64,000 nucleotides of DNA, from the NCBI GenBank assembly GCA_963783375.1, contig CAWANH010000029.1, positions 864,001 to 928,000 on the forward strand, in the 5' to 3' direction. The notes beneath the pieces were generated by a model. That model had not been told where the DNA came from. It made no database searches and saw only the letters and a list, made by a program, of their open reading frames with translations. Below, in pieces: positions 13,262 to 57,146 of this stretch. Numbering within the stretch: position 1 is the stretch's first letter; every line of letters begins with the position of its first letter. Position numbers and translations under genes: made by a program. The stretch comes from Candidatus Eiseniibacteriota bacterium. GTDB lineage: Bacteria > Eisenbacteria > RBG-16-71-46 > JABDJR01.

Positions 13262-13519
13262 TTACTCGGAGGCCTCTATCGAGACTTCCTTCCGATCCTT
13301 GCCCTTGCGCGCAAATGTCACCCGCCCGTCCACCAGGGCGAACAGCGTGTCGTCCTTGCCCCGCCCCACATTGACCCCGGGAAGGATCCGGGTGCCGCGC
13401 TGGCGCACGATGATGCTGCCCGCGGTGACCCGCTCTCCGCCGAAGGCCTTCACGCCGAGCCGTTGACTGTTGGAATCCCGGCCGTTCCGGCTCGATCCTA
13501 CACCTTTTTTGTGTGCCAT
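13262..13519 (-). CDS. rpmA: 50S ribosomal protein L27
   Basis: [24 protein letters not shown]. Confidence 0.99.
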
Positions 13520-13559: not shown

Positions 13560-13871
13560 TCAGCCCTCGATGCCGTCGATACGAATCTCGGTGTAGTCCT
13601 GGCGATGCCCCCACCGGCGGCGATACTTCCGGCGGCGCTTGAACTTGCCCGCCACGAGCTTGGGGGTGCGGGCATGCTCCACGACCTGGGCGGAGACCGA
13701 GGCCCCCTCCACCGTCGGGGTACCCACCTTGACCGAGGTCCCGTCCTGGACCAGGAGGACCTCGTCGAGGGTCAGGGTGGCCCCTTCCTCGGCCTCGAGG
13801 AGGGGAACCCGGAGCACCTGGTCCTTTTCCACCCGGTACTGGAAACCGGCGACCTTGATGACTGCGAACAT
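13560..13871 (-). CDS. rplU: 50S ribosomal protein L21
   Basis: MFAVIKVAGFQYRV, GHRQDYT; GAGGAGG RBS; upstream of rpmA. Confidence 0.98.
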   Translation of the reverse strand: MFAVIKVAGFQYRVEKDQVLRVPLLEAEEGATLTLDEVLLVQDGTSVKVGTPTVEGASVSAQVVEHARTPKLVAGKFKRRRKYRRRWGHRQDYTEIRIDGIEG

Positions 13872-13947: not shown

Positions 13948-13976
13948 ATGATACCAGCCCCCCCGGGCCGGGTCAA
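13948..13976 (-). promoter_or_regulatory. sigma70 promoter TTGACC-17-TATCAT for rplU-rpmA
   Basis: Near-consensus boxes, extended TG, GC-rich discriminator. Confidence 0.75.
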
Positions 13977-14088: not shown

Positions 14089-15675
14089 TCAGGGCCGGAA
14101 GCGCTCGGTCACGTCCTCGTTGGTCCGGGGGAAGATGACCTTGACCTCCCCCCGCTTCAGCCGGGGGTCGTCCCGGACGTCGATCTGGAACTTGAACTTC
14201 TGCTCCAGCCGGGCCAGCCGGTCCGCGCTTTCCGCGAACAGGTGCTGGGCCATCTCCGGCGATACCCGAAGCTCGATCATCTTCTCCTGGGTGTTGACCC
14301 CGATCCGGTTCAGCAGGCGCTCGACCTTGAGCGCCACCGACTCCAGGCTCAGGACCTTGCCCAGCCCGGCGCAGCAGATGCAGTCGTTGGAGTAGTAGTG
14401 GAGAAGGCTCGGGCGTTCCCGCTGACGGGTCATCTCCACCAGCCCCAGATCCGACACCGCGAAGGTCTTGGTGCGGCTCCGGTCCCGCTTGAGGTTCTTC
14501 CGGAGCTCCTCCAGGACCGCCTTCTTGTTGGCCTCGGACTCCATGTCGATGAAGTCGAGGACGATGATCCCGCCGATGTCCCGGAGACGGAGCTGGCGGC
14601 CGATCTCCCGCGCCGCCTCGATGTTGGTCTTGAGGATGGTCTCTTCCTGGTTCTTCTTCCCCACGAACCGGCCGGTGTTGACGTCGATGGCCACCAGGGC
14701 CTCGGCCTGATCGATCACGATGTAGCCGCCCCGCTTGAGCCACACCTTCCGCTCGAAGAGCTTGTCGATCTCGGATTCGATGCGGAAGGCGTCGAAGATC
14801 GGGAGCTTCCCCCGGTACTGACGGACCCGGCTCACCAGGTCCGGAGAGACCGACTGGAGGTAGTCCCGCACCTCCTGGTAGACATCCGGCGAGTCCACCG
14901 CCACGTCGTCCACGTCCTCGGTGAGGATGTCGCGAATGAGCCCGGTGGCCAGGGAGAGTTCGCGGTGAATGAGGGCGGGAGACGGCGCCGCCGCGCACCG
15001 CCGCTCGATCTTCTTCCACTGCTTGACCAGGTACCCCACGTCCTCCCGGAACTCCTCCCGGGAGCGCCCCTCCCCCGCCGTCCGCACGATGAGGCCCGCG
15101 TTCTTGGGGCGGATGTCCTTCAGGATCTTCTTCAGGCGGTACCGCTCGTCCCGGCTGGGGATCTTGCGGGAAACCCCGATGTGGTCGGCGCCGGGCATGA
15201 ACACCACGTAGCGGCCGGGGAGGCTCACCTGCTGGCTCACCCGGGGGCCCTTGGTGGAGATGGGCTCCTTGGTGACCTGGACCACGACCTCCTGGGATTT
15301 CTGGAGATGGTCCTCGATCTTGGGGGCGCTTTCGCGCCGGGGCTTTCGACGGGGGGATCGTCCCCCGCGGCCGCCGCGGGCCGGCGCTCCTCCTCCGCTC
15401 TCCGGCTCGTCGTCGTCGTCGAGGAGATCCACGTCGCCCCCCACCAGGGAGGCGGCGAGGTCGGAGGCGTGGAGAAACGCGGTCTTGGCCAGGCCGATCT
15501 CCACGAAGGCGGCCTGCATGCCGGGAAGGACGGCGTTCACCTTCCCCTTGTAGATGTCCCCCACGATGCGGCGGTCATCGGGCCGCTCCACCAGGAGCTC
15601 CACGAGCTGCTTGTCTTCCAGGATCGCCACCCGGGTTTCCTTCGGGTCGGCGTTGATAATGATCGACTTCTGCAT
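14089..15675 (-). CDS. rng: Ribonuclease E/G family (RNase G length)
   Basis: GDIYKGKV, PGMQAAFV, AIDVNTG, RQLRLRDIGGIIVLDFIDM. Confidence 0.93.
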   Translation of the reverse strand: MQKSIIINADPKETRVAILEDKQLVELLVERPDDRRIVGDIYKGKVNAVLPGMQAAFVEIGLAKTAFLHASDLAASLVGGDVDLLDDDDEPESGGGAPARGGRGGRSPRRKPRRESAPKIEDHLQKSQEVVVQVTKEPISTKGPRVSQQVSLPGRYVVFMPGADHIGVSRKIPSRDERYRLKKILKDIRPKNAGLIVRTAGEGRSREEFREDVGYLVKQWKKIERRCAAAPSPALIHRELSLATGLIRDILTEDVDDVAVDSPDVYQEVRDYLQSVSPDLVSRVRQYRGKLPIFDAFRIESEIDKLFERKVWLKRGGYIVIDQAEALVAIDVNTGRFVGKKNQEETILKTNIEAAREIGRQLRLRDIGGIIVLDFIDMESEANKKAVLEELRKNLKRDRSRTKTFAVSDLGLVEMTRQRERPSLLHYYSNDCICCAGLGKVLSLESVALKVERLLNRIGVNTQEKMIELRVSPEMAQHLFAESADRLARLEQKFKFQIDVRDDPRLKRGEVKVIFPRTNEDVTERFRP

Positions 15676-15682
15676 CGAATCC

Positions 15683-18289
15683 TCATGAGACCGCGCCCCC
15701 CTTTCGGGCCGTTTGCTGCCACCACGCGAAACCGGACGCAACGACGGCGAGCGGGTCGAGAACCTGGTTCCGACCGGGAATCATGAGACCGCTCCGGTGA
15801 ACCCGCAGCAGCCGCTCGTCGAAGTCCGCCCAATTGCAGAGGACGGTGGTGAGAAGTTCGGGGCGCACGCTGTCGGGGCGGTTCAGGGCGAGGGTCAGAC
15901 CCAACCGGGGGCCCCCTTCCTCTCCGCGCTCGACCACGGCCCGAATCAGGGACGGTCTGGCATTGAATGTCCGTGAATCCTCGCCCCGCACCTTGGTCAC
16001 CTCGATGACCTTCGCGGCCAGTGCCCGGTCCACGCTCTCGCGCAGCCGGGTCTCCAGCTCCCCGGGGGACATGCCCCCGAATTGGTCCCGGACCAGGGTG
16101 GCGGGGAACGAAACTTCGTAAACTGCTATCTGGATCGCGCTGTTCAGCGAATCCGGCTCGGTGCGAATGGGGGCCTGTGCCGTCACCTGGAGCCCGGCGG
16201 GAAGCGCCTGATTGAAAAGGGTGACAAAGGACTCCGGCACATCCCGGGCGAAGGCGACGTCGAAGTATTCCGCGTCGCTGGTCATGCCGAGGGGTAGGGG
16301 GGGACCGAAGGAGAGCTTCGGCCTCCGTCCCTTGCCCTGGGACACGGCCAGCGGAAGCTGGGTCCGCCTAAACGCACGCTCAAGAGAGCGGGTCACATCC
16401 AGATGGGCGGTGAACCGCGCGGGTTCGCCTTTGGAGAAGCGCAGGCGGTATCTCTCCGCCTGACGGGCTTCCCGCCCTCTGCCCGCCCGCCGGGGACGCC
16501 GGCCCGCCGTCCAGGCGGGCGCGTCGAACCCCGGGGTGGACGCGCCGGCGCCGGTGGACCCGGCCCGGGCGTCCGTCCGCTTCGAGGATTCCCCTCCCCC
16601 GTTACCGAGGGGCGGGGACTCGAGCACGACGTGAGACCAGGGAGTAGGTTGGAGGTCGTCGGGAGGAAAGCCGGCGACCCCGAGGGCGGTCATCGCCTCT
16701 TCCCACCGCGACGCCGAGAACGCGTCGGGATCGGACTGGCGGCGCGCCCCCTGGCGCGACACCTGATCCAACACCGCGGCCGCCCGTTCGTCGCTCCGGA
16801 GGAGCAACGCCTCCACCCGGGCCGCCCGGGGGGAGCGAACGGAGACCTTGACCTTCCGCCGCGCCAGGCGGCGGCGCCATCCTTCGACGACGGCCAGGCA
16901 TGCGTCCTCGTCGGTGGAAGCCTCCAACTCCCACCGGGTGTGCGGGCGGGGAACGAAGGGAACGACCTCCACGCTCAGCCGCGGGGCGCCGCCCTGCGGC
17001 GTCCGAATGGACTGAATCGCTTCCATCGTCTCCAACCATTCCTCGCGATCGTCCTCGGTCTCCCCGGGAAGGCCCAGGAGGACCTGGAGTCGGATGGCCG
17101 ACCACCCGCCCCGCCACGCGGTCTGGACGGCCTCGAACAGCCGCTCCTTGGTGAGCGGCCGGCCGATCATCTCGCGGAGACGGGCGGAGGGAGCCATGGG
17201 CTCGAACGTGAACCGGGCGCGGCGCCCCTTGCGAAGCTCGCGGGCCAGGGCGGGAGCCACCCGGGTCGGGTCCACGTCTTCCAGCCGGAACTGGACGCCG
17301 TACGGTCCAAACCTCTGGTTCATCGCTTCGAGGAGCGGCACGATCTCGGGATGGCGGCTCCCCGCCGCCGAGGCCAGAACCACCGCTCCGTGCCCGCTCG
17401 CCGCCAGCGCGGCCTCGGTTTCGCGAAGCACGCGTTCCAACGAGCGCACGCGGAGCAAGGCGGGCGCCGAGGCCGGATCGTCCACCCCCCGGTGGCGGGC
17501 GATCTCCACCACCAGTCCCTCCGCTTCGGTTTCCGCGAAGGGGACGATGGGGGCATCGGAAATCGGGGGAAGGTGGGCGAGCCAGCGGGCGCGCACCGGG
17601 GCTCCGTCCCCGTTTCCGTTCCGGTGTTCGGCCGCCGAGGCCCCGGTCTTGATCTCCGGGACCAGGATCCCGTCCCGGCCCTCGAAGAGCGCCCGGAGTT
17701 CGCTCCGGGTGCGATCGCCGCGGCGGCGGAGTTCCCGCCCCACCTCGAGCAGATCCGCGGCGAAGGCCTCGGGATCCCCGACCAGGAAGGCATCCACCCA
17801 GGGCGCGGCGGGCCGGGGGGTGAGCGAGAGTTCCCCCGCCATCACCACGAGGGGATCCCCGGCGGACCGGAGAGCCGAACGGAGCTCCACCCCCGCCAGA
17901 TCCAGCATGGCCGCCAGGTCGGGAAGGTCCAGCACGCCGTCGGGAAGGGCGATCAGAAGATCGTAGTCCGCCAGCGGGCGCCGGGCTCCCAATCCGAAGA
18001 GCGGCACCCCCTGGCGCCGGAGCTCCGCTTCGAAGTCCGGGGCGGGGGCGAACGCGAGGTCCACCAGCACCTGGTCGGGCTCTCCCGCACCCCGCAGCGC
18101 ATCGAGCAAACCGGGCACGCGCGCCCGGCCCAGGCCGGACTCGAGGGGACCGGGATAGACCAGACAGACCCGCACGCCGGCTCGATCGAAGTCGGGAAGG
18201 CGGCCGTGGGCGAAAGGGTTTTGGTACCGGTTCGGCTTGGAGACCAGGGGGAGGACACATTCCTCCAACCGGTCCGTTACGAGTTCCAT
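15683..18289 (-). CDS. TIGR03960-like radical SAM-fold protein fused to DUF2344 (TIGR03936), lacking the CxxxCxxC motif
   Basis: SKPNRY, GLPGETEDD, FVPRPHT; C-terminal FSKGEPARFTAHLD...KLSFGPPLPLG; usual position upstream of rng. Confidence 0.82.
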   Translation of the reverse strand: MELVTDRLEECVLPLVSKPNRYQNPFAHGRLPDFDRAGVRVCLVYPGPLESGLGRARVPGLLDALRGAGEPDQVLVDLAFAPAPDFEAELRRQGVPLFGLGARRPLADYDLLIALPDGVLDLPDLAAMLDLAGVELRSALRSAGDPLVVMAGELSLTPRPAAPWVDAFLVGDPEAFAADLLEVGRELRRRGDRTRSELRALFEGRDGILVPEIKTGASAAEHRNGNGDGAPVRARWLAHLPPISDAPIVPFAETEAEGLVVEIARHRGVDDPASAPALLRVRSLERVLRETEAALAASGHGAVVLASAAGSRHPEIVPLLEAMNQRFGPYGVQFRLEDVDPTRVAPALARELRKGRRARFTFEPMAPSARLREMIGRPLTKERLFEAVQTAWRGGWSAIRLQVLLGLPGETEDDREEWLETMEAIQSIRTPQGGAPRLSVEVVPFVPRPHTRWELEASTDEDACLAVVEGWRRRLARRKVKVSVRSPRAARVEALLLRSDERAAAVLDQVSRQGARRQSDPDAFSASRWEEAMTALGVAGFPPDDLQPTPWSHVVLESPPLGNGGGESSKRTDARAGSTGAGASTPGFDAPAWTAGRRPRRAGRGREARQAERYRLRFSKGEPARFTAHLDVTRSLERAFRRTQLPLAVSQGKGRRPKLSFGPPLPLGMTSDAEYFDVAFARDVPESFVTLFNQALPAGLQVTAQAPIRTEPDSLNSAIQIAVYEVSFPATLVRDQFGGMSPGELETRLRESVDRALAAKVIEVTKVRGEDSRTFNARPSLIRAVVERGEEGGPRLGLTLALNRPDSVRPELLTTVLCNWADFDERLLRVHRSGLMIPGRNQVLDPLAVVASGFAWWQQTARKGGAVS

Positions 18290-18581: not shown

Positions 18582-19328
18582 TCAGGCCAGGGCCAGGGCC
18601 ACCGGAACCACCCGCGTCGCCCCCGCCGCCTCCAGGGCCCGGGCCGCGGCAAGCAGGGTGGAGCCGGTAGTGGCCACGTCGTCCACCAGGACCCAGCTTC
18701 GCCCGGTGATCCAGGCCCCTTCCCGACTCGCGAAGGCGCCGGCCACGTTCCCCGCACGGCTCGATTCGGGGAGGCGGGCCTGGGCCCGGGTGGCCCGGGC
18801 GCGGCGGAGCGCTTCCGGGACCGGCGGGCACGCCCATCGAGGCGCCGCCGCCCCGGCCAGGAGCCCGGCCTGGTTGTACCCCCGGGCCCGAAGCCGGGTG
18901 CGATGAAGCGGCACCGCGGTGAGGCAGGCCCCGGCGAGGCCCGGGTCCACCCGACCGGCCAGGATCCGTCCCAGGGGCCGGGCGAGATCCCGCCGGCCGT
19001 GATACTTGAGGCCGTGCACCAGGGCGTCGAGGGGCGGCTCCATCCAGTAGGCGGCCCGGCCCCGCAGGCGGTCGTGCCCGGGACGCCGGCACGCGTACCC
19101 GGCCTCCCGGTCTCCCCCGGGACGCTCCTCGCTCCGGCAGGCGAAGCAGATCCAGCCCGGCGGCGCGGGCCGGAGGGCGCGCCGGCACCGCCCGCAGATC
19201 CAGCGCCGCGGGCCGATCTCCTCGCCGCAGCCCGGACAGAGGGGGGGAAGCAGGGTGTCGAGGAGGAGGCGCGCGGCGGCGCGGGCGGAACCGGGAAGGC
19301 GGCGTCCGGCTCGTTGCAGTGGATTCAC
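18582..19328 (-). CDS. comF: ComF family protein (double zinc ribbon plus PRTase domain)
   Basis: CPGC, CGRC, VPLH, RGYNQA, LVDDVATTGST. Confidence 0.9.
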   Translation of the reverse strand: MNPLQRAGRRLPGSARAAARLLLDTLLPPLCPGCGEEIGPRRWICGRCRRALRPAPPGWICFACRSEERPGGDREAGYACRRPGHDRLRGRAAYWMEPPLDALVHGLKYHGRRDLARPLGRILAGRVDPGLAGACLTAVPLHRTRLRARGYNQAGLLAGAAAPRWACPPVPEALRRARATRAQARLPESSRAGNVAGAFASREGAWITGRSWVLVDDVATTGSTLLAAARALEAAGATRVVPVALALA

Positions 19329-19440: not shown

Positions 19441-21060
19441 TCATTCCTTCCGGAGGAACACCACCACGTGGAAGTTCCGTTCCCTCCCCGCCACAAGCTC
19501 CATCAGCCGCTCGTAGTGCGGGTCGTTCCGGAGCAGGGTGTCGGGCACGTCTCCCCAGAGCCGCGGCCCGTAGTGGTTCTCCCACAGCACCACGCTCCCC
19601 GGCCGGGCCCCGGCCAGATTCGCCCGGGTGAGCTTCGGGGTCCGGGTGGCATCGTAGCGGTCGCGACCGGAGAAGAAGGCGAACCAGGGATGGTTGGTGT
19701 AGACCACGGCGTTCCCCAGGCCGAGCCGGTCGATCTGCTCGGTGGCCGCCTTCACCGCCGCGCGCTCGGGATCGAGGCCGATGGGGCGGACGGTGAGAAG
19801 CGCCAGCGCCGCCGCTCCCACCCCCGCGGCTATTGCCACCCGGCGCGGGGGAACGAGCCGCGGCCGGAACAGCACGAGCACCCCGCCCGCGGCGAGGAGC
19901 GCGGTCACCACCCAGCGCCATTCCACCCGTCCCGGCCCGATGAAGGACTCCCCCACCAGGACGTGCGAGCCGAAGAGCGCCACCACCGCGGTCCAGGCCA
20001 GCGCGAAACCGATTCGTAGTCCCAGGGGGCGCGGCCGAAGCCCGGACCAGTCCCCGGCCCCACGGGCGGCCACCAGCGCCACCGCCGGGGCTACCACCGC
20101 GATGTGACGGAGAAACCCGACGCTCCGCCCGAAGGGAAGCTTGTCCCAGGCCAGGAGGCTCAGGAGAACCACGTCCACCACCACCAGGACCACGGCCAGG
20201 ACCGGAAGGCGCGCCGGAGCCTCGGACGAGGCGGGCGCCCGGTTCCCGGAGCGAAGCGCCGCCGCCAGGGCCCACAGGAAGAAGAAGAGGACCACCGCCC
20301 CGATCACCACCACCCCGTTCCGAACGTACTGGAGCGGCCCCAGGCTCACCAGCGGACGCTCGTTCCCCGCCCCCAGCACATAGAGCGGCGACCCGTGGAG
20401 CGCCCAGCCCGCCACCGCCCAGACGGCGCCCGGGAAGAAGGCCCCCAGCCGCGCCTTCCATCCCACCCGGGGCCACGCCGCGGCCAGGACCACCAGGGTG
20501 AGCACGCCGGCCTCGATCCGGGCCAGGGGAAGGAGCCCGGCCAGAAGCACCGCCCGGTCGCGCCGCCCCGCGTACCACGCCCAGAGAAGGGCCGCCATCA
20601 CCAGCGCGGCCATCGGCTCCGCCAATCCCCCGTAGGAGGTTTCGAGGACCAGCGGCTGGAAGAAGAAGAACGGCACCGCGAGCCAGGGGAAGGCCACCCC
20701 CGCCGCCTCGGCGGCCAGGCCGGCCAGGGCCGCCGCCCCCGCCACCGCCACCGCGGTGGTCGCCTCCACCCCCGCATAGCCGAAGAGGCGGGCGGGAAGC
20801 GCGAACAGCGCCAGGGGGACCGGCATCCCCCAGTCGTCGGCGAGGAGCGAGGGGTCCTTCCAGACCTGGCGGGCCATGTAGTAGCGATCGATGTCGTCGT
20901 CCTGGTAGGTGCCGGGGGAACGGGCGGCGTAGACCAGGGCCACGGCCAGGCAGAGAAGGGCGAGGGCGAGGATCGCGCGCCGGGACCGCCCGGAGCCGGC
21001 CTTCCGGCGCGTTCCGCTCCCGGACCGCGGCGCGCGCCGCCCGAGGCCCCGGTTCCCCAT
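19441..21060 (-). CDS. Polytopic membrane protein, GT-C-like glycosyltransferase
   Basis: N-terminal TM followed by YQDDDIDRY acidic motif, many TM segments, soluble C-terminal domain. Confidence 0.6.
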   Translation of the reverse strand: MGNRGLGRRAPRSGSGTRRKAGSGRSRRAILALALLCLAVALVYAARSPGTYQDDDIDRYYMARQVWKDPSLLADDWGMPVPLALFALPARLFGYAGVEATTAVAVAGAAALAGLAAEAAGVAFPWLAVPFFFFQPLVLETSYGGLAEPMAALVMAALLWAWYAGRRDRAVLLAGLLPLARIEAGVLTLVVLAAAWPRVGWKARLGAFFPGAVWAVAGWALHGSPLYVLGAGNERPLVSLGPLQYVRNGVVVIGAVVLFFFLWALAAALRSGNRAPASSEAPARLPVLAVVLVVVDVVLLSLLAWDKLPFGRSVGFLRHIAVVAPAVALVAARGAGDWSGLRPRPLGLRIGFALAWTAVVALFGSHVLVGESFIGPGRVEWRWVVTALLAAGGVLVLFRPRLVPPRRVAIAAGVGAAALALLTVRPIGLDPERAAVKAATEQIDRLGLGNAVVYTNHPWFAFFSGRDRYDATRTPKLTRANLAGARPGSVVLWENHYGPRLWGDVPDTLLRNDPHYERLMELVAGRERNFHVVVFLRKE

Positions 21061-53384: not shown

Positions 53385-56300
53385 TCAGACCTCGGCCATC
53401 GCCTCGCGCACCGAAAAGTACCGGGCGTCGGGATGGTGGAGGACGAGGGCGGAGACCGAAGCCTCGGGCTCCATCATGTACCCGTCGGTGAGTTCGACCC
53501 CGATCCTTCGCTGGGGCTCGAGGAGACGCCAGAGCGCCGCCTGGTCCTCGAGGTCGGGGCAGGCCGGATAGCCGAAGGAGACCCGAAGGCCGCGGTAACG
53601 GGCCTGAAAAATGTCCTTGGGGGAAAGCTCCGGCGGATCCGGGAAGCCCCACATCGCGCGGATCTTCCGGTGGAGGAACTCCGCGAACCCTTCCGCGCTC
53701 TCGATGGCCAGGGCCTGGAGCGCGTAGGATTTCAGGTACTCCCCCGCCTCCTTCCAGGCCTCGGCGCGGTCCCTCACCCCGCTCCCGCAGGTCACCACGA
53801 AAGCGGCGAGATAGTCGGTGCGCCCGGAGGACTTCGGCGCGAACCAGTCGGCCAGGCACAGACGATCCCGGTCGCTCTGGCGGGGGAAATCGAAGCGGGC
53901 GATCTCGGGACCGCCGGGACGCTCGACCAGGACCACGCTGTCCCCGTCCGCCTGCGCCGCGTAGAACCGGTAGACCGCCCGGGGGGTCATGAGCCCGAGG
54001 CTCAGCACCTCGTCCTTGAGCGCCTCCACCGCCTCCTCGAGCTTGGCCGTCTTGACGTCGCCCTGCTCGCGGAGCCGCTCGATCGACCCTCGGAGCCCCA
54101 GGTGCTTCACGTAGAGCATCTGGGGGTTCACGAAGGGGAAGATCTCCTCGAGCCCGACGTTCTCCACCACGTGGAGCTTCAGGTCCGGCGGCTCGGGGAT
54201 CTCCACCTCGCGCCACCCCGCCACCGGCGCCGCCGGGGCGGTCGCGCTTTCCGGAACCGCCACCGGAGCGGCCTCGCGCCGACCCGCCCGCTCGGCGAAG
54301 AGCGCGTCCCGGCGGGACGGGTCCACCAACCGTTGGGCCACGCCGAGCCCGTCCATGGCGTCCCGGCAGTAGATCACCGGCCCCGGGTACCCGGCGGCGA
54401 TCCGGGTCTCGGTGAACTTCCGGGTGAGCGCCGCCCCCCCCACGAGAATCGGGGCGGACACGCCGGCCTCGGCCAGATCCTGGGCGGTCACCACCATCTG
54501 TTGGGCGGACTTCACCAGGAGCCCGGAGAGGCCGATCATGTCCGGCCGGTGCTTCTTGGCCGCATCGATCAGGTCCTGGGGCGGGACCTTGATGCCCAGA
54601 TTCACCACCTCGAATCCGTTGTTGGCGAGCACGATCTCCACCAGGTTCTTCCCGATGTCGTGCACGTCGCCCTTCACCGTGGCCAGCATCACCTTGCCCC
54701 GGCTCCGGCTGTCCGCCTTCTCCATGTAGGGCTCGAGGTGCGACACCGCCGCCTTCATGGCTTCGGCGCTCTGGAGCACTTCGGCCACGATGAGCTCGTT
54801 CCGGTTGAAGAGGCGCCCCACCTCGTCCATCCCCTTCATGAGCGGACCGTTGATGATCTGGAGCGGCGGAGTCCCGGCCCGCGCCCGCTCCAGGTCCTCG
54901 ATCAGCCCGTCCCGGGATCCCTCGATGATGTAGTCGGCGAGCCGCTCCTCGAGGCTCCGGTTCTCCTTCTTCGGCTTCGTGCGGGTGGCGGAACGGTTCC
55001 GGTAGAACGCGGCGAACGCGGCGATCGGGTCCTCTCCCCGGTCCATGAGCAGGTCCTCGGCCAGGCGCCGCTCCTCCTCGGGAATGGACGCGTAGCGCTC
55101 CAGCTTCTCGCTGTTCACGATGGCCAGATCCAGTCCGGCCTCGATGCAGTGGTGGAGGAAGACCGAGTTCAGGACCTCGCGTCCCGCAGGGGGAAGGCCG
55201 AAGGAGACGTTGGAGATCCCCAGGATGGTCTTCGATCGCGGAAACGCCTCCTTGATGAGGCGGACCCCCTCGATGGTCTCCACCGCACTCCCCACGTAGG
55301 CCCGGTCCCCGGTGGCGCAGGGAAAGACCAGGGGGTCGAAGATCAGGTCCTCCTCGGGAACGCCGTAGTCGCGGGTAAGGAGTTCGTGGGAGCGCCGGGC
55401 GATCTCGAGCTTCCGCGCCCGGGTCACCGCCATCCCCTGCTGGGGATCCTCGTCGATGGTGCCGACCACCAGGGCCGCGCCGAACTTCCGGGCCAGGGGG
55501 ACCACGGCCCGGAACCGTTCCTCCCCGTCCTCCAGGTTCACCGAGTTGATGATCGACTTCCCCTGGCAGCGCCGGAGCGAGCGATCGATCACCGCGGCGT
55601 CGGTGCTGTCGATCATGAGGGGGAGTTTCACCTTGCGGGCCACGCGCTCCAGAAACCGGTCCATGTCCGCCGTCTCGTCCCGGTCGGGGTCGGCCAGGCA
55701 GACGTCCAGCACGTGCGCCCCTCCCCGCATCTGCCGGCGTCCGATCTCCGCGGCCTCCTCGAACTGCCCGGCCTGGATCAGGGACTTGAACTTGCGGCTC
55801 CCGATGACGTTGGTGCGCTCTCCCACGATGATCGGGCGGTTTTCTTCCTCGAGGGAGAGAAAGTCGATGCCGGATACCCGCGAGAAGCGACCGTGGACCG
55901 GGGTCCGAGGCGCCTTCCCCGACACGGCGGCGGCGATGGCCCGGATGTACTCCGGCGTGGTGCCGCAGCAGCCTCCCACCAGGTTCACCCACCCGTGCTC
56001 GGCGAAGCGCCCGAGCACCGAGGCCAGCTTCTCCGGGGACTCGTTGTAGCGCCCGTCCTCGTCGGGGAGCCCGGCGTTGGGAACGCAGGAAACCGCGCAC
56101 TCGGCGATCGCGGCCAGGGAGCGCACGTGGTCGGTCATGAAGGAGGGGCCGGTGGCGCAGTTGAGCCCGATGGCCAGGAGGTCCAGGTGCTCCAGGCTGG
56201 CATAGAGCGCCTCCACTCCCTGTCCGGCCAGCATGGCGCCCATCGGCTCGATGGTCCCGGAGATCGCCATCGGCACCCGGCGCCCGACGATCTCCGCGGC

Positions 56301-56846
56301 CTCGGCAATCCCCAGGGTGGCCGCCTTCACGTTCAGGGTATCCTGGGAGGTCTCCACCATCAGGAAATCGGCTCCCCCCTCGATCAGACCCGCCGCCTGC
56401 TCGCGGTAGTGGGCAACCATTTCGTCGAAGGTGACCCCCCCGGTGACCGAGATGGTCTTGGTGGTCGGGCCCATGCTGCCGGCCACGAAACGGGGCTTGT
56501 CGGGGGTCGCGAACTCCGCCGCCGCTCGAACGGCGATCTCCGCCGCGGCGCGGTTCAGTTCCCGGGCCCGTTCGGCCAGACCGTACTCGGCCAGGACCAG
56601 GGGCGTCCCCCCGAAGGTGTCGGTCTCGATGATGTCGGCGCCGGCGGCGAGGAAGCTCCGATGGATGTCGAGGATCGCCCCGGGATTCACCACGCTCAGG
56701 TACTCGTTGCACCCGTCGAACTCCGCCCCCCCGAACGCCTCCGGATCCAGGTCGAGGTTCTGGATGGAGGTCCCCATCGCCCCGTCCAGGACGAGGATGC
56801 GGCGGGTCATGAGGTCCTTGAGCAGGACGATTCGGTCATCGGGCAC
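53385..56846 (-). CDS. metH: Cobalamin-dependent methionine synthase
   Basis: [42 protein letters not shown]. Confidence 0.97.
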
Positions 56847-56959
56847 GTCGGTGTCCTCGGGTCGGAGAAGGAAGCGGGCGGCGGGGCGCGGGCGGGCCCG
56901 CCGGCCGGATATACGCCGGCCGCGGAGCGCGCTCGTCGCCCTCCCACGGTCGAACATGC

Positions 56960-56968
56960 ATTGTAGCA
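56960..56968 (-). promoter_or_regulatory. Extended -10 TGcTACAAT for metH
   Basis: About 115 nt upstream of the GTG start. Confidence 0.55.
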
Positions 56969-57146
56969 AACACGGTTACGGGGTCGAGGGGCGGGGACGG
57001 TCCCTCCCTCCCGGGGACCGGTCCGAGGCCTCGGCGGGCGCGCGCCGGGGCCCTTGGGCACGAAGAGAGCCGGGGATCGGTGCCGATCCCCGGCTCGTGA
57101 CGGTCATGACGGTTGCGGGCGGGCGGCCGCCCTTCCCACCGGGCGG

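Follow-up and report, generated by a model that had tools for sequence, protein, structure and literature searches.

The DNA analysed here is a stretch of 64,000 nucleotides, referred to as the window. On its minus strand it carries the gene of P0001, a protein in which a radical S-adenosylmethionine (SAM) region lacking its iron-sulfur motif is fused to a DUF2344 domain, directly upstream of rng. An earlier note on this DNA had read the protein as a pseudoenzyme and suggested that DUF2344 has a function independent of radical chemistry. The features of the gene are as follows.

15683-18289, minus: cluster-less TIGR03960/TIGR03936 (radical SAM + DUF2344) fusion, P0001; 868 residues, no internal stop
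17570-18289, minus: N-terminal Radical_SAM_N2 (cobalamin-binding-like) region, residues 1-240; from Pfam and conservation
16625-17569, minus: radical-SAM barrel, residues 241-555; fold predicted intact
17441-17509, minus: loop bearing the family's CxxxCxxC motif, without any Cys in P0001, residues 261-283; from alignment
17054-17083, minus: retained strand VLLGLPGETE, residues 403-412, which we take to be GxIxGxxE-like; from alignment
16460-16624, minus: predicted disordered linker (predicted local distance difference test score, pLDDT, < 50), with the second Cys cluster deleted; from model and alignment
16487-16504, minus: Arg-rich GRRPRR inside the linker, before DUF2344; from alignment
15755-16459, minus: DUF2344/TIGR03936 domain, residues 611-845; predicted pseudouridine-synthase (TruA/Pus10-like) fold
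16286-16306, minus: PPLPLG with Pro666 at the likely catalytic-Asp position; from a weak profile alignment
15719-15730, minus: C-terminal FxWW, residues 854-857; invariant in the cluster-less clade of the source organism's order, low-confidence in the monomer model

The Pfam matches in P0001 are Radical_SAM_N2 (residues 72-211), Radical_SAM (279-420) and DUF2344 (613-809; 122 bits). The Radical_SAM match covers profile positions 25-164, so the motif-bearing start of the profile is unmatched. The NCBIfam model TIGR03960 scored 192.8 bits, below its cut-off of 462.3 (E value, 9e-57; model positions 3-542), and TIGR03936 scored 133.7 bits, above its cut-off of 71.9 (positions 1-208 of 209). Model-wide homology, together with placement on the tree with intact rng-adjacent copies, identifies P0001 as a member of the TIGR03960 family by descent.

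The EIxRGCxxxCxFC motif of the family is replaced in P0001 by VEIARHRGVDDPASAPALLRVRS (residues 261-283, nucleotides 17441-17509), in agreement with the earlier note, which had placed the loss at about 17440-17515. Its count of four scattered Cys in 868 residues was likewise correct (positions 11, 42, 464, and 818), and no CxxxCxxC was found in any of the six frames across the gene, so that, as it had claimed, no other frame restores the motif. To describe what else has changed, residues were compared in 13 motif-less (dead), 32 intact and seven divergent rows, taking positions conserved in at least 90% of intact members. In the N region the dead proteins keep 22 of 52 such positions and lose 13, including the family's GFSLQYEL, which reads IALPDGVL in P0001. 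In the barrel they keep 20 of 61 and lose 33, among them the three Cys of the motif, SLSTxD, the Glu of FAPEAG, KLYFM, and PFQW. All 12 such positions of DUF2344 are kept by the 13 dead proteins. By this alignment most consensus residues of the SAM and cobalamin sites are gone from P0001. The second Cys cluster (CRxxCxxCG type), present in most intact members, is deleted from the linker of the dead proteins. An alternative Cys cluster, which the earlier note had asked about, was ruled out, as no Cys column is common to the 13 motif-less proteins in the alignment; one representative, P0020, has a single Cys in 848 residues. The sequence of the motif loop varies freely between members.

Conservation and selection across the order

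Relatives share the loss. A motif-less, unbroken copy lies directly upstream of rng in 10/10 genomes of the order (nine beside the source), with the gene split over two contigs in G007 and rng cut by a contig end in G009. The motif-less orthologs of the order are 31–95% identical to P0001 and stop-free. The motif is also missing from 13 full-length representatives of 50%-identity clusters in the order's clade, with lengths of 794–888 residues, and the C-terminal FxWW tail is invariant across this clade. Motif loss in all nine other genomes and in the 13 representatives, together with the six-frame check, ruled out a frameshift, an assembly artefact and chance. Among 20 sequencing runs listed, seven had a share of 0.25–0.50 (soil, salt marsh, and wetland), and one RNA run had a share of 0.05.

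The ratio (omega) of non-synonymous (dN) to synonymous (dS) substitution was estimated by the Nei-Gojobori method with bootstrap ranges. For residues 1-560 of P0001 against G002, dS was 0.155 and dN 0.029, giving an omega of 0.18 (bootstrap 0.11–0.27; 65 synonymous and 34 non-synonymous differences), which falls inside the range of six neighbour genes (0.055–0.26). Against the more distant G001, G003, and G004, omega was 0.39–0.49 for residues 1-560 and 0.12–0.31 for residues 611-720 of DUF2344; the comparison genes comF and rng gave 0.49 and 0.18, respectively, against G001. The Nei-Gojobori method tends to underestimate dS when the G + C content of third codon positions (GC3) is near 0.9. 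Since dS is likely understated at such high GC3, the reported omegas are probably too high. These values indicate that the radical-SAM part of the dead copy is under purifying selection, which rules out a recent pseudogene, counters neutral decay and thereby supports the earlier note's reading of a pseudoenzyme.

The source genome also carries an intact paralog (G000:C28, L035 8285-11173, plus strand), a protein of 962 residues with the motif RGCTEGCRFC and its own DUF2344. Its TIGR03960 score of about 683 bits (682.8–684) exceeds the cut-off of 462.3, and it is surrounded by unrelated genes (RDD, EamA, and GGDEF). The earlier note had proposed a search for such a copy; a motif-bearing, above-cut-off second copy was in fact found in 10/10 genomes of the order. 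No rng was found within the fetched flanks of the intact paralogs in these 10 genomes, one contig being only 4 kb long. The paralogs of the order's two families are about 35–37% identical, and a single clade for them was rejected (approximately unbiased test, p-AU 0.022; LG+G4; the group was named after earlier trees), an indication that the intact paralog was acquired twice, independently. The Atlas clusters nearest to it are commonest in Myxococcota, a lead only, from which no donor is claimed.

Dead copy and paralog were compared domain by domain in seven genomes of the same family (21 non-independent pairs). In the radical-SAM part, mean identity (N region/barrel) was 43/45% for the dead copy vs. 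75/85% for the paralog. In the two halves of DUF2344 it was 71/62% vs. 66/48%, the dead copy being the more conserved in 17/21 and 21/21 pairs, respectively.

History of the motif loss

A DUF2344 tree was built from 27 rng-adjacent and 21 non-rng rows, after one row without the domain and four near-duplicates had been dropped. All 27 rng-adjacent rows, intact or not, fell on one side of this tree (support 95), which identifies the dead gene as the native ortholog, with the working copy descending from a separate lineage. The order's dead copies formed a single group on a radical-SAM tree from which the motif columns had been removed (support 95; long branches may attract) and were grouped at 80 on another DUF2344 tree. 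As the order's paralogs do not form one clade, motif loss may predate the present working copies.

Other members of the class, which appears to be the only one in the source phylum, carry further forms of the gene. An intact copy stands at rng in 11 class loci examined. In G014, G021, G033, and G038 the rng-adjacent copy keeps the motif with an eroded site, and a second copy lies elsewhere; in G063 and G121 the rng-adjacent copy is eroded and a second copy was not found. The copies at L055, L059, L062, and L086 (families f13 and f7) and at L088 and L112 (family f18) keep CxxxCxxC and have lost SLSTxD, GFSLQYEL, and the second Cys cluster, and are possible intermediates toward the dead form as judged from these residues; no second family copy was found in the f18 genomes. 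The rng-adjacent form of G025 (L114 527-2437, minus strand; 637 residues) is motif-less, has lost much of the barrel and retains a complete DUF2344; a search of this 78% complete genome found no other family copy. A form in G018 resembles that of G025 and is split over contigs. In all, four genomes (G018, G025, G063, and G121; 78–95% complete) have a degenerate copy without a detected second copy. The class thus shows a graded series: intact, motif kept with the site eroded, motif lost, barrel partly deleted, and gene lost. GRRPRR before DUF2344 occurs in most rng-adjacent copies of the class; neither the non-rng copies nor those of family f12 have it.

To look outside the class, 1.84 billion representatives were searched with a profile built from 14 dead proteins, and the best 150 matches were classified as 119 with the motif, 24 without it and seven fragments. 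FxWW was present in 20 of these 150, namely 13 full-length motif-less proteins and the seven fragments, all of the order's clade, and in 0/119 motif-bearing proteins. Ten further motif-less full-length fusions among the best 150 lie outside the order's clade, a count that excludes P0125, which is one residue off the motif; one of the ten clusters with a protein labelled candidate division Zixibacteria by NCBI. A tree of 148 rows required at least six changes between presence and absence of the motif, and a single clade of 23 motif-less rows was rejected (p-AU 8e-6). These trees indicate that motif loss recurred independently in other lineages. Together with the domain-wise conservation, the repeated loss supports the suggestion of a DUF2344 function independent of radical chemistry.

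A metagenome scan recovered 71 loci, which a crude rule divided into 59 with the motif, two full-length without it and 10 fragments. Six annotated loci of the 71 fetched define a second lineage, in which the gene immediately precedes rsmB in motif-less L141, L161, and L163 and in intact L146, L147, and L164 (L163 covers only the 5' part of the gene, and its loop region is motif-less by the same test). All six fall in the same tree clade (support 98) as P0136, whose cluster is the one with the NCBI-labelled Zixibacteria protein. The motif-less copies beside rsmB carry no FxWW. RsmB is the 16S m5C967 methyltransferase according to its NCBIfam label.

Predicted structure and gene neighbourhood

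The full-length model of P0001, folded from an alignment of 35 sequences that included intact homologs, had a pLDDT of 84 and a predicted template modelling score (pTM) of 0.86, with disorder at residues 213-228, 559-610, and 856-868. A partial triosephosphate isomerase (TIM)-barrel fold is present in the model. The first two domains matched MgmA, TsrM, MiaB, and TokK (E values of 3e-11 to 4e-8 for MgmA, TsrM, and MiaB), and the third matched TruA/PUS1/PUS3. The barrel and DUF2344 are predicted to be packed in one body.

Modelled alone, DUF2344 reached a pLDDT of 93.6 and matched Pus10 at Z 13.9 and TruA (1vs3) at Z 13.8 (root-mean-square deviation 3.3, 206 residues aligned), pseudouridine synthases ranking above every unrelated fold (Z 6.7 or less). 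The Foldseek match to the pseudouridine-synthase fold had an E value of 5e-8. The TruA-like chain 9hny_FB, from assembly intermediates of the trypanosome mitochondrial small ribosomal subunit (mt-SSU), also matched at Z 13.3. DUF2344 is mentioned in the literature as part of the pseudouridine-synthase domain in the Pfam clan (PMC7955657). At the sequence level, hmmsearch with the DUF2344 profile placed all of 11 TruA sequences below threshold, and a PDB sequence search with P0001 returned weak RimO matches only and none for DUF2344.

A profile alignment sets LGMTSxAEY of DUF2344 on AGVHAxGQV of TruA, which brings residue 666 to the position of the catalytic Asp, and the same register recurs in one row of a further weak profile alignment. 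In the column of residue 666, Pro is found in 34/38 rows and Asp never, and no RTD-like motif occurs in DUF2344. The domain therefore likely lacks the catalytic Asp of pseudouridine synthases, as far as this register holds, and with the radical motif missing as well, both halves of P0001 look non-catalytic. H629 and E674 do not vary across the 38 DUF2344 rows, all of which have Asp or Glu at position 631. The source genome carries a separate TruA with the RTD motif. The weak TIGR03936 matches of G058 and G039 turned out to be truA genes. The truA of G004 (L140, G004:C2:329374-329574) covers model positions 5-73 only and is possibly frameshifted.

The neighbouring genes were assigned as follows.

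14089-15675, minus: rng (RNase G/E family), starting 7 nucleotides past the P0001 stop; from Pfam/NCBIfam
13560-13871, minus: rplU (L21); label from reading of the sequence
13262-13519, minus: rpmA (L27); label from reading of the sequence
18582-19295 (start approximate), minus: comF-like gene directly upstream of the P0001 gene; conserved neighbour

The locus reads mreB-mreC-mreD-pbp2-rodA-membrane protein-comF-[P0001]-rng-rplU-rpmA-mdh, the labels being read from sequences except for rng, comF, and plsC, and the position beside rng-rplU-rpmA is as the earlier note had described it. In 6/6 same-family relatives aligned to the rng start, TGAGG overlaps the stop codon of the P0001 homolog. The promoter scan returned a single sigma-70-like site, TTGACC-17-TATCAT (10/12, extended TG; window 13948-13976, minus strand; 0.2 expected by chance), which lies between rng and rplU, and none ahead of the P0001 gene. 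This site suggests that rplU-rpmA may have its own promoter, which weakens the idea that the P0001 gene is kept solely as a transcript leader.

The predicted membrane protein of the locus (539 residues, window 19441-21060, minus strand) had no Pfam or NCBIfam match and is kept between rodA and comF in 8/8 genomes of the source's family; a distant homolog lies near the intact paralog in G008. A B12-dependent methionine synthase is encoded at window 53388-56969 (minus strand). This gene indicates that the organism uses cobalamin, so that lack of the cofactor does not explain the lost cobalamin-region consensus.

Proposed function and relation to known systems

From these results, we are confident that P0001 is a pseudoenzyme kept by selection. 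What it does can be proposed with about even confidence: from the fold and the gene neighbours only, P0001 may be a non-catalytic RNA-binding factor in the maturation of ribosomal RNA (rRNA), probably 16S, acting through DUF2344 and the Arg-rich linker. RNase G acts on 16S rRNA, and the 16S reading comes from two different neighbours, RNase G and RsmB, that both act on this molecule. In the mechanism we propose, the ancestral or intact enzyme would be a cobalamin-type radical SAM protein that grips RNA through a dead, TruA-like DUF2344 and modifies it by radical chemistry. In the source's order the chemistry would have gone, with the RNA-gripping DUF2344, the basic linker, and the new aromatic tail remaining under selection and the empty barrel probably kept as a structural partner packing on DUF2344. 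The dead copy would then act as an RNA chaperone or assembly factor, like RPUSD3 or mt-LAF3, and the intact paralog, where present, would supply the chemistry. A wider proposal is that TIGR03960-DUF2344 proteins also perform another task in bacterial ribosome biogenesis, one that needs no catalysis and can be separated from the radical chemistry, the loss of which would have isolated it several times. The doubly dead form, a cluster-less radical SAM region with an Asp-less pseudouridine synthase, would then be a bacterial 16S-maturation factor and would match, in prokaryotes, the dead pseudouridine synthases that take part in mitoribosome assembly. This we put forward tentatively, as possible and on balance doubtful.

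Several observations weigh against the proposed RNA-binding role. Gene neighbours are all that favours rRNA over transfer RNA (tRNA), the usual ligand of TruA-type folds. The alignment of Pro to the catalytic Asp is weak (hhalign probability 4%, E 0.0097, and no alignment in global mode). The barrel is relaxed, with an omega of 0.21 vs. 0.076 in the core of the paralog, and the omega of DUF2344 against G002 (0.45, range 0.16–1.33) is uninformative, with nine synonymous differences. The Arg-rich motif is missing from four intact copies adjacent to rng (family f12). The DUF2344 invariants are also retained by the intact paralog, which leaves unexplained why two DUF2344 domains are kept and why the paralog does not replace the dead copy. 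Finally, the gene is dispensable elsewhere in the class, as none of 16 genomes from five further families has a family match upstream of rng, a non-rng copy being the only one they keep; this loss in several sister families implies either that not every lineage needs the job or that the other copy is able to perform it.

P0001 might instead be an adaptor or regulator of RNase G, its FxWW tail or DUF2344 docking on co-translated RNase G to feed or shield the substrate. The 7-nucleotide spacing, the TGAGG over the stop codon in all six relatives, and the restriction of FxWW to the motif-less clade would fit, as would the low confidence of the tail in the monomer model, which is often seen with linear motifs. 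We consider this unlikely, since motif-less copies in the other lineage adjoin rsmB rather than rng and have no FxWW, and rng stands without a family neighbour in the 16 genomes mentioned above.

A catalysis of its own in DUF2344, other than Asp-based pseudouridylation, would make the radical half redundant and could use His629, Asp/Glu631, and Glu674, whose conservation extends to all dead copies. Set against this are the D/E exchange tolerated at position 631 and the alignment of the same positions to TruA residues that are conserved and non-catalytic (E674 to the Gln of GQV). Our literature search, with subscription journals and supplements outside its scope, found no described activity, and we rate this explanation a little lower still.

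The dead copy could also be a partner or decoy of the intact paralog, forming a heterodimer or competing for the RNA site and so tuning modification. Both copies do co-occur in every genome of the order; TruA-family proteins are described as dimers (PMC12710931) and inactive RlmN variants as dominant negatives (PMC5062987). Yet the divergence of the two families' paralogs and the rejection of a single clade for them imply that the partner would have been swapped, and the four genomes with degenerate copies have no detected second copy. The probability we give it is low and marginally below that of a catalytic DUF2344.

Slow decay, in which the gene itself would do nothing and its frame would be held only as the leader of the rng-rplU-rpmA transcript, is improbable and already largely refuted. 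It would account for the long barrel branches, the 43–45% identity within the family, and the complete loss of the gene from its place beside rng in five other families. However, frame-keeping alone would not yield a dN/dS of 0.18 over 560 codons, length is nearly constant among the 13 full-length representatives, the dead copy's DUF2344 surpasses the working paralog's in conservation, and the clade has invariants of its own such as FxWW. A non-canonical radical enzyme with the cluster bound by other ligands would suit the predicted intact barrel and the retained GxIxGxxE-like strand, but is highly improbable given the absence of a shared Cys column, the single Cys of P0020, and the freely varying loop.

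This pseudoenzyme is of interest beyond its own locus. Lineage-wide radical SAM pseudoenzymes under selection are rarely described, and none was found in our literature search. P0001 can be regarded as a natural separation-of-function allele of a widespread family whose substrate is not known. Without a cluster it is expected to tolerate air and to be easily expressed, and would thus be a ready bait for the family's RNA. The graded series in the class shows a route from radical SAM enzyme to pseudoenzyme, and annotation based on TIGR03936 or Radical_SAM overcalls activity in these phyla.

Among known systems, the closest is the TIGR03960 + TIGR03936/PF10105 family itself, which has the same domain order, fold, and place upstream of rng-rplU-rpmA and whose NCBIfam model TIGR03960 is described as a B12-binding radical SAM protein (rSAM_fuse_unch). 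P0001 derives by descent from the class's intact copies at rng. In the control panel, Synechococcus elongatus and Thermotoga maritima matched both TIGR03960 and TIGR03936. P0001 differs from its intact members by the lost CxxxCxxC, second Cys cluster, and cobalamin-region consensus, by the added FxWW, and by its coexistence with an intact paralog. The literature search turned up no functional study of TIGR03960/TIGR03936, or of DUF2344 in combination with radical SAM, and no description of a cluster-less member. The parent family is catalogued and uncharacterised.

The cobalamin-dependent radical SAM methylases (MgmA/QCMT, TsrM, and TokK) and MiaB/RimO are the best fold matches of the two N-terminal domains. 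RlmX, a cobalamin-type radical SAM protein acting on 23S rRNA, is evidence that rRNA can be a target of this class (PMC13602947), and three Cys are described as cluster ligands required in cobalamin-dependent radical SAM methylases (PMC9401015). None of these enzymes has a pseudouridine-synthase-like tail, and their three-Cys cluster is absent in P0001. TruA and Pus10 (Pfam clan CL0649) match DUF2344 over the whole domain (Z 13.7–13.9 over about 205 residues), but DUF2344 differs in its 9–16% identity, in the Pro at the likely Asp position, and in its fusion behind a radical-SAM barrel.

For the function proposed, the nearest parallels are RPUSD3 and mt-LAF3, in which a pseudouridine-synthase fold serves rRNA maturation without catalysis. 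Human RPUSD3 is reported to act in rRNA maturation without the catalytic Asp (PMC12710931), and the D211A variant of trypanosome mt-LAF3 to be functional (bioRxiv 10.1101/2023.02.23.529727; the mt-LAF3 work is also cited in PMC13759221). Both are eukaryotic and RluA-type, without a radical-SAM domain, and the likeness seen between them and P0001 is one of fold only.

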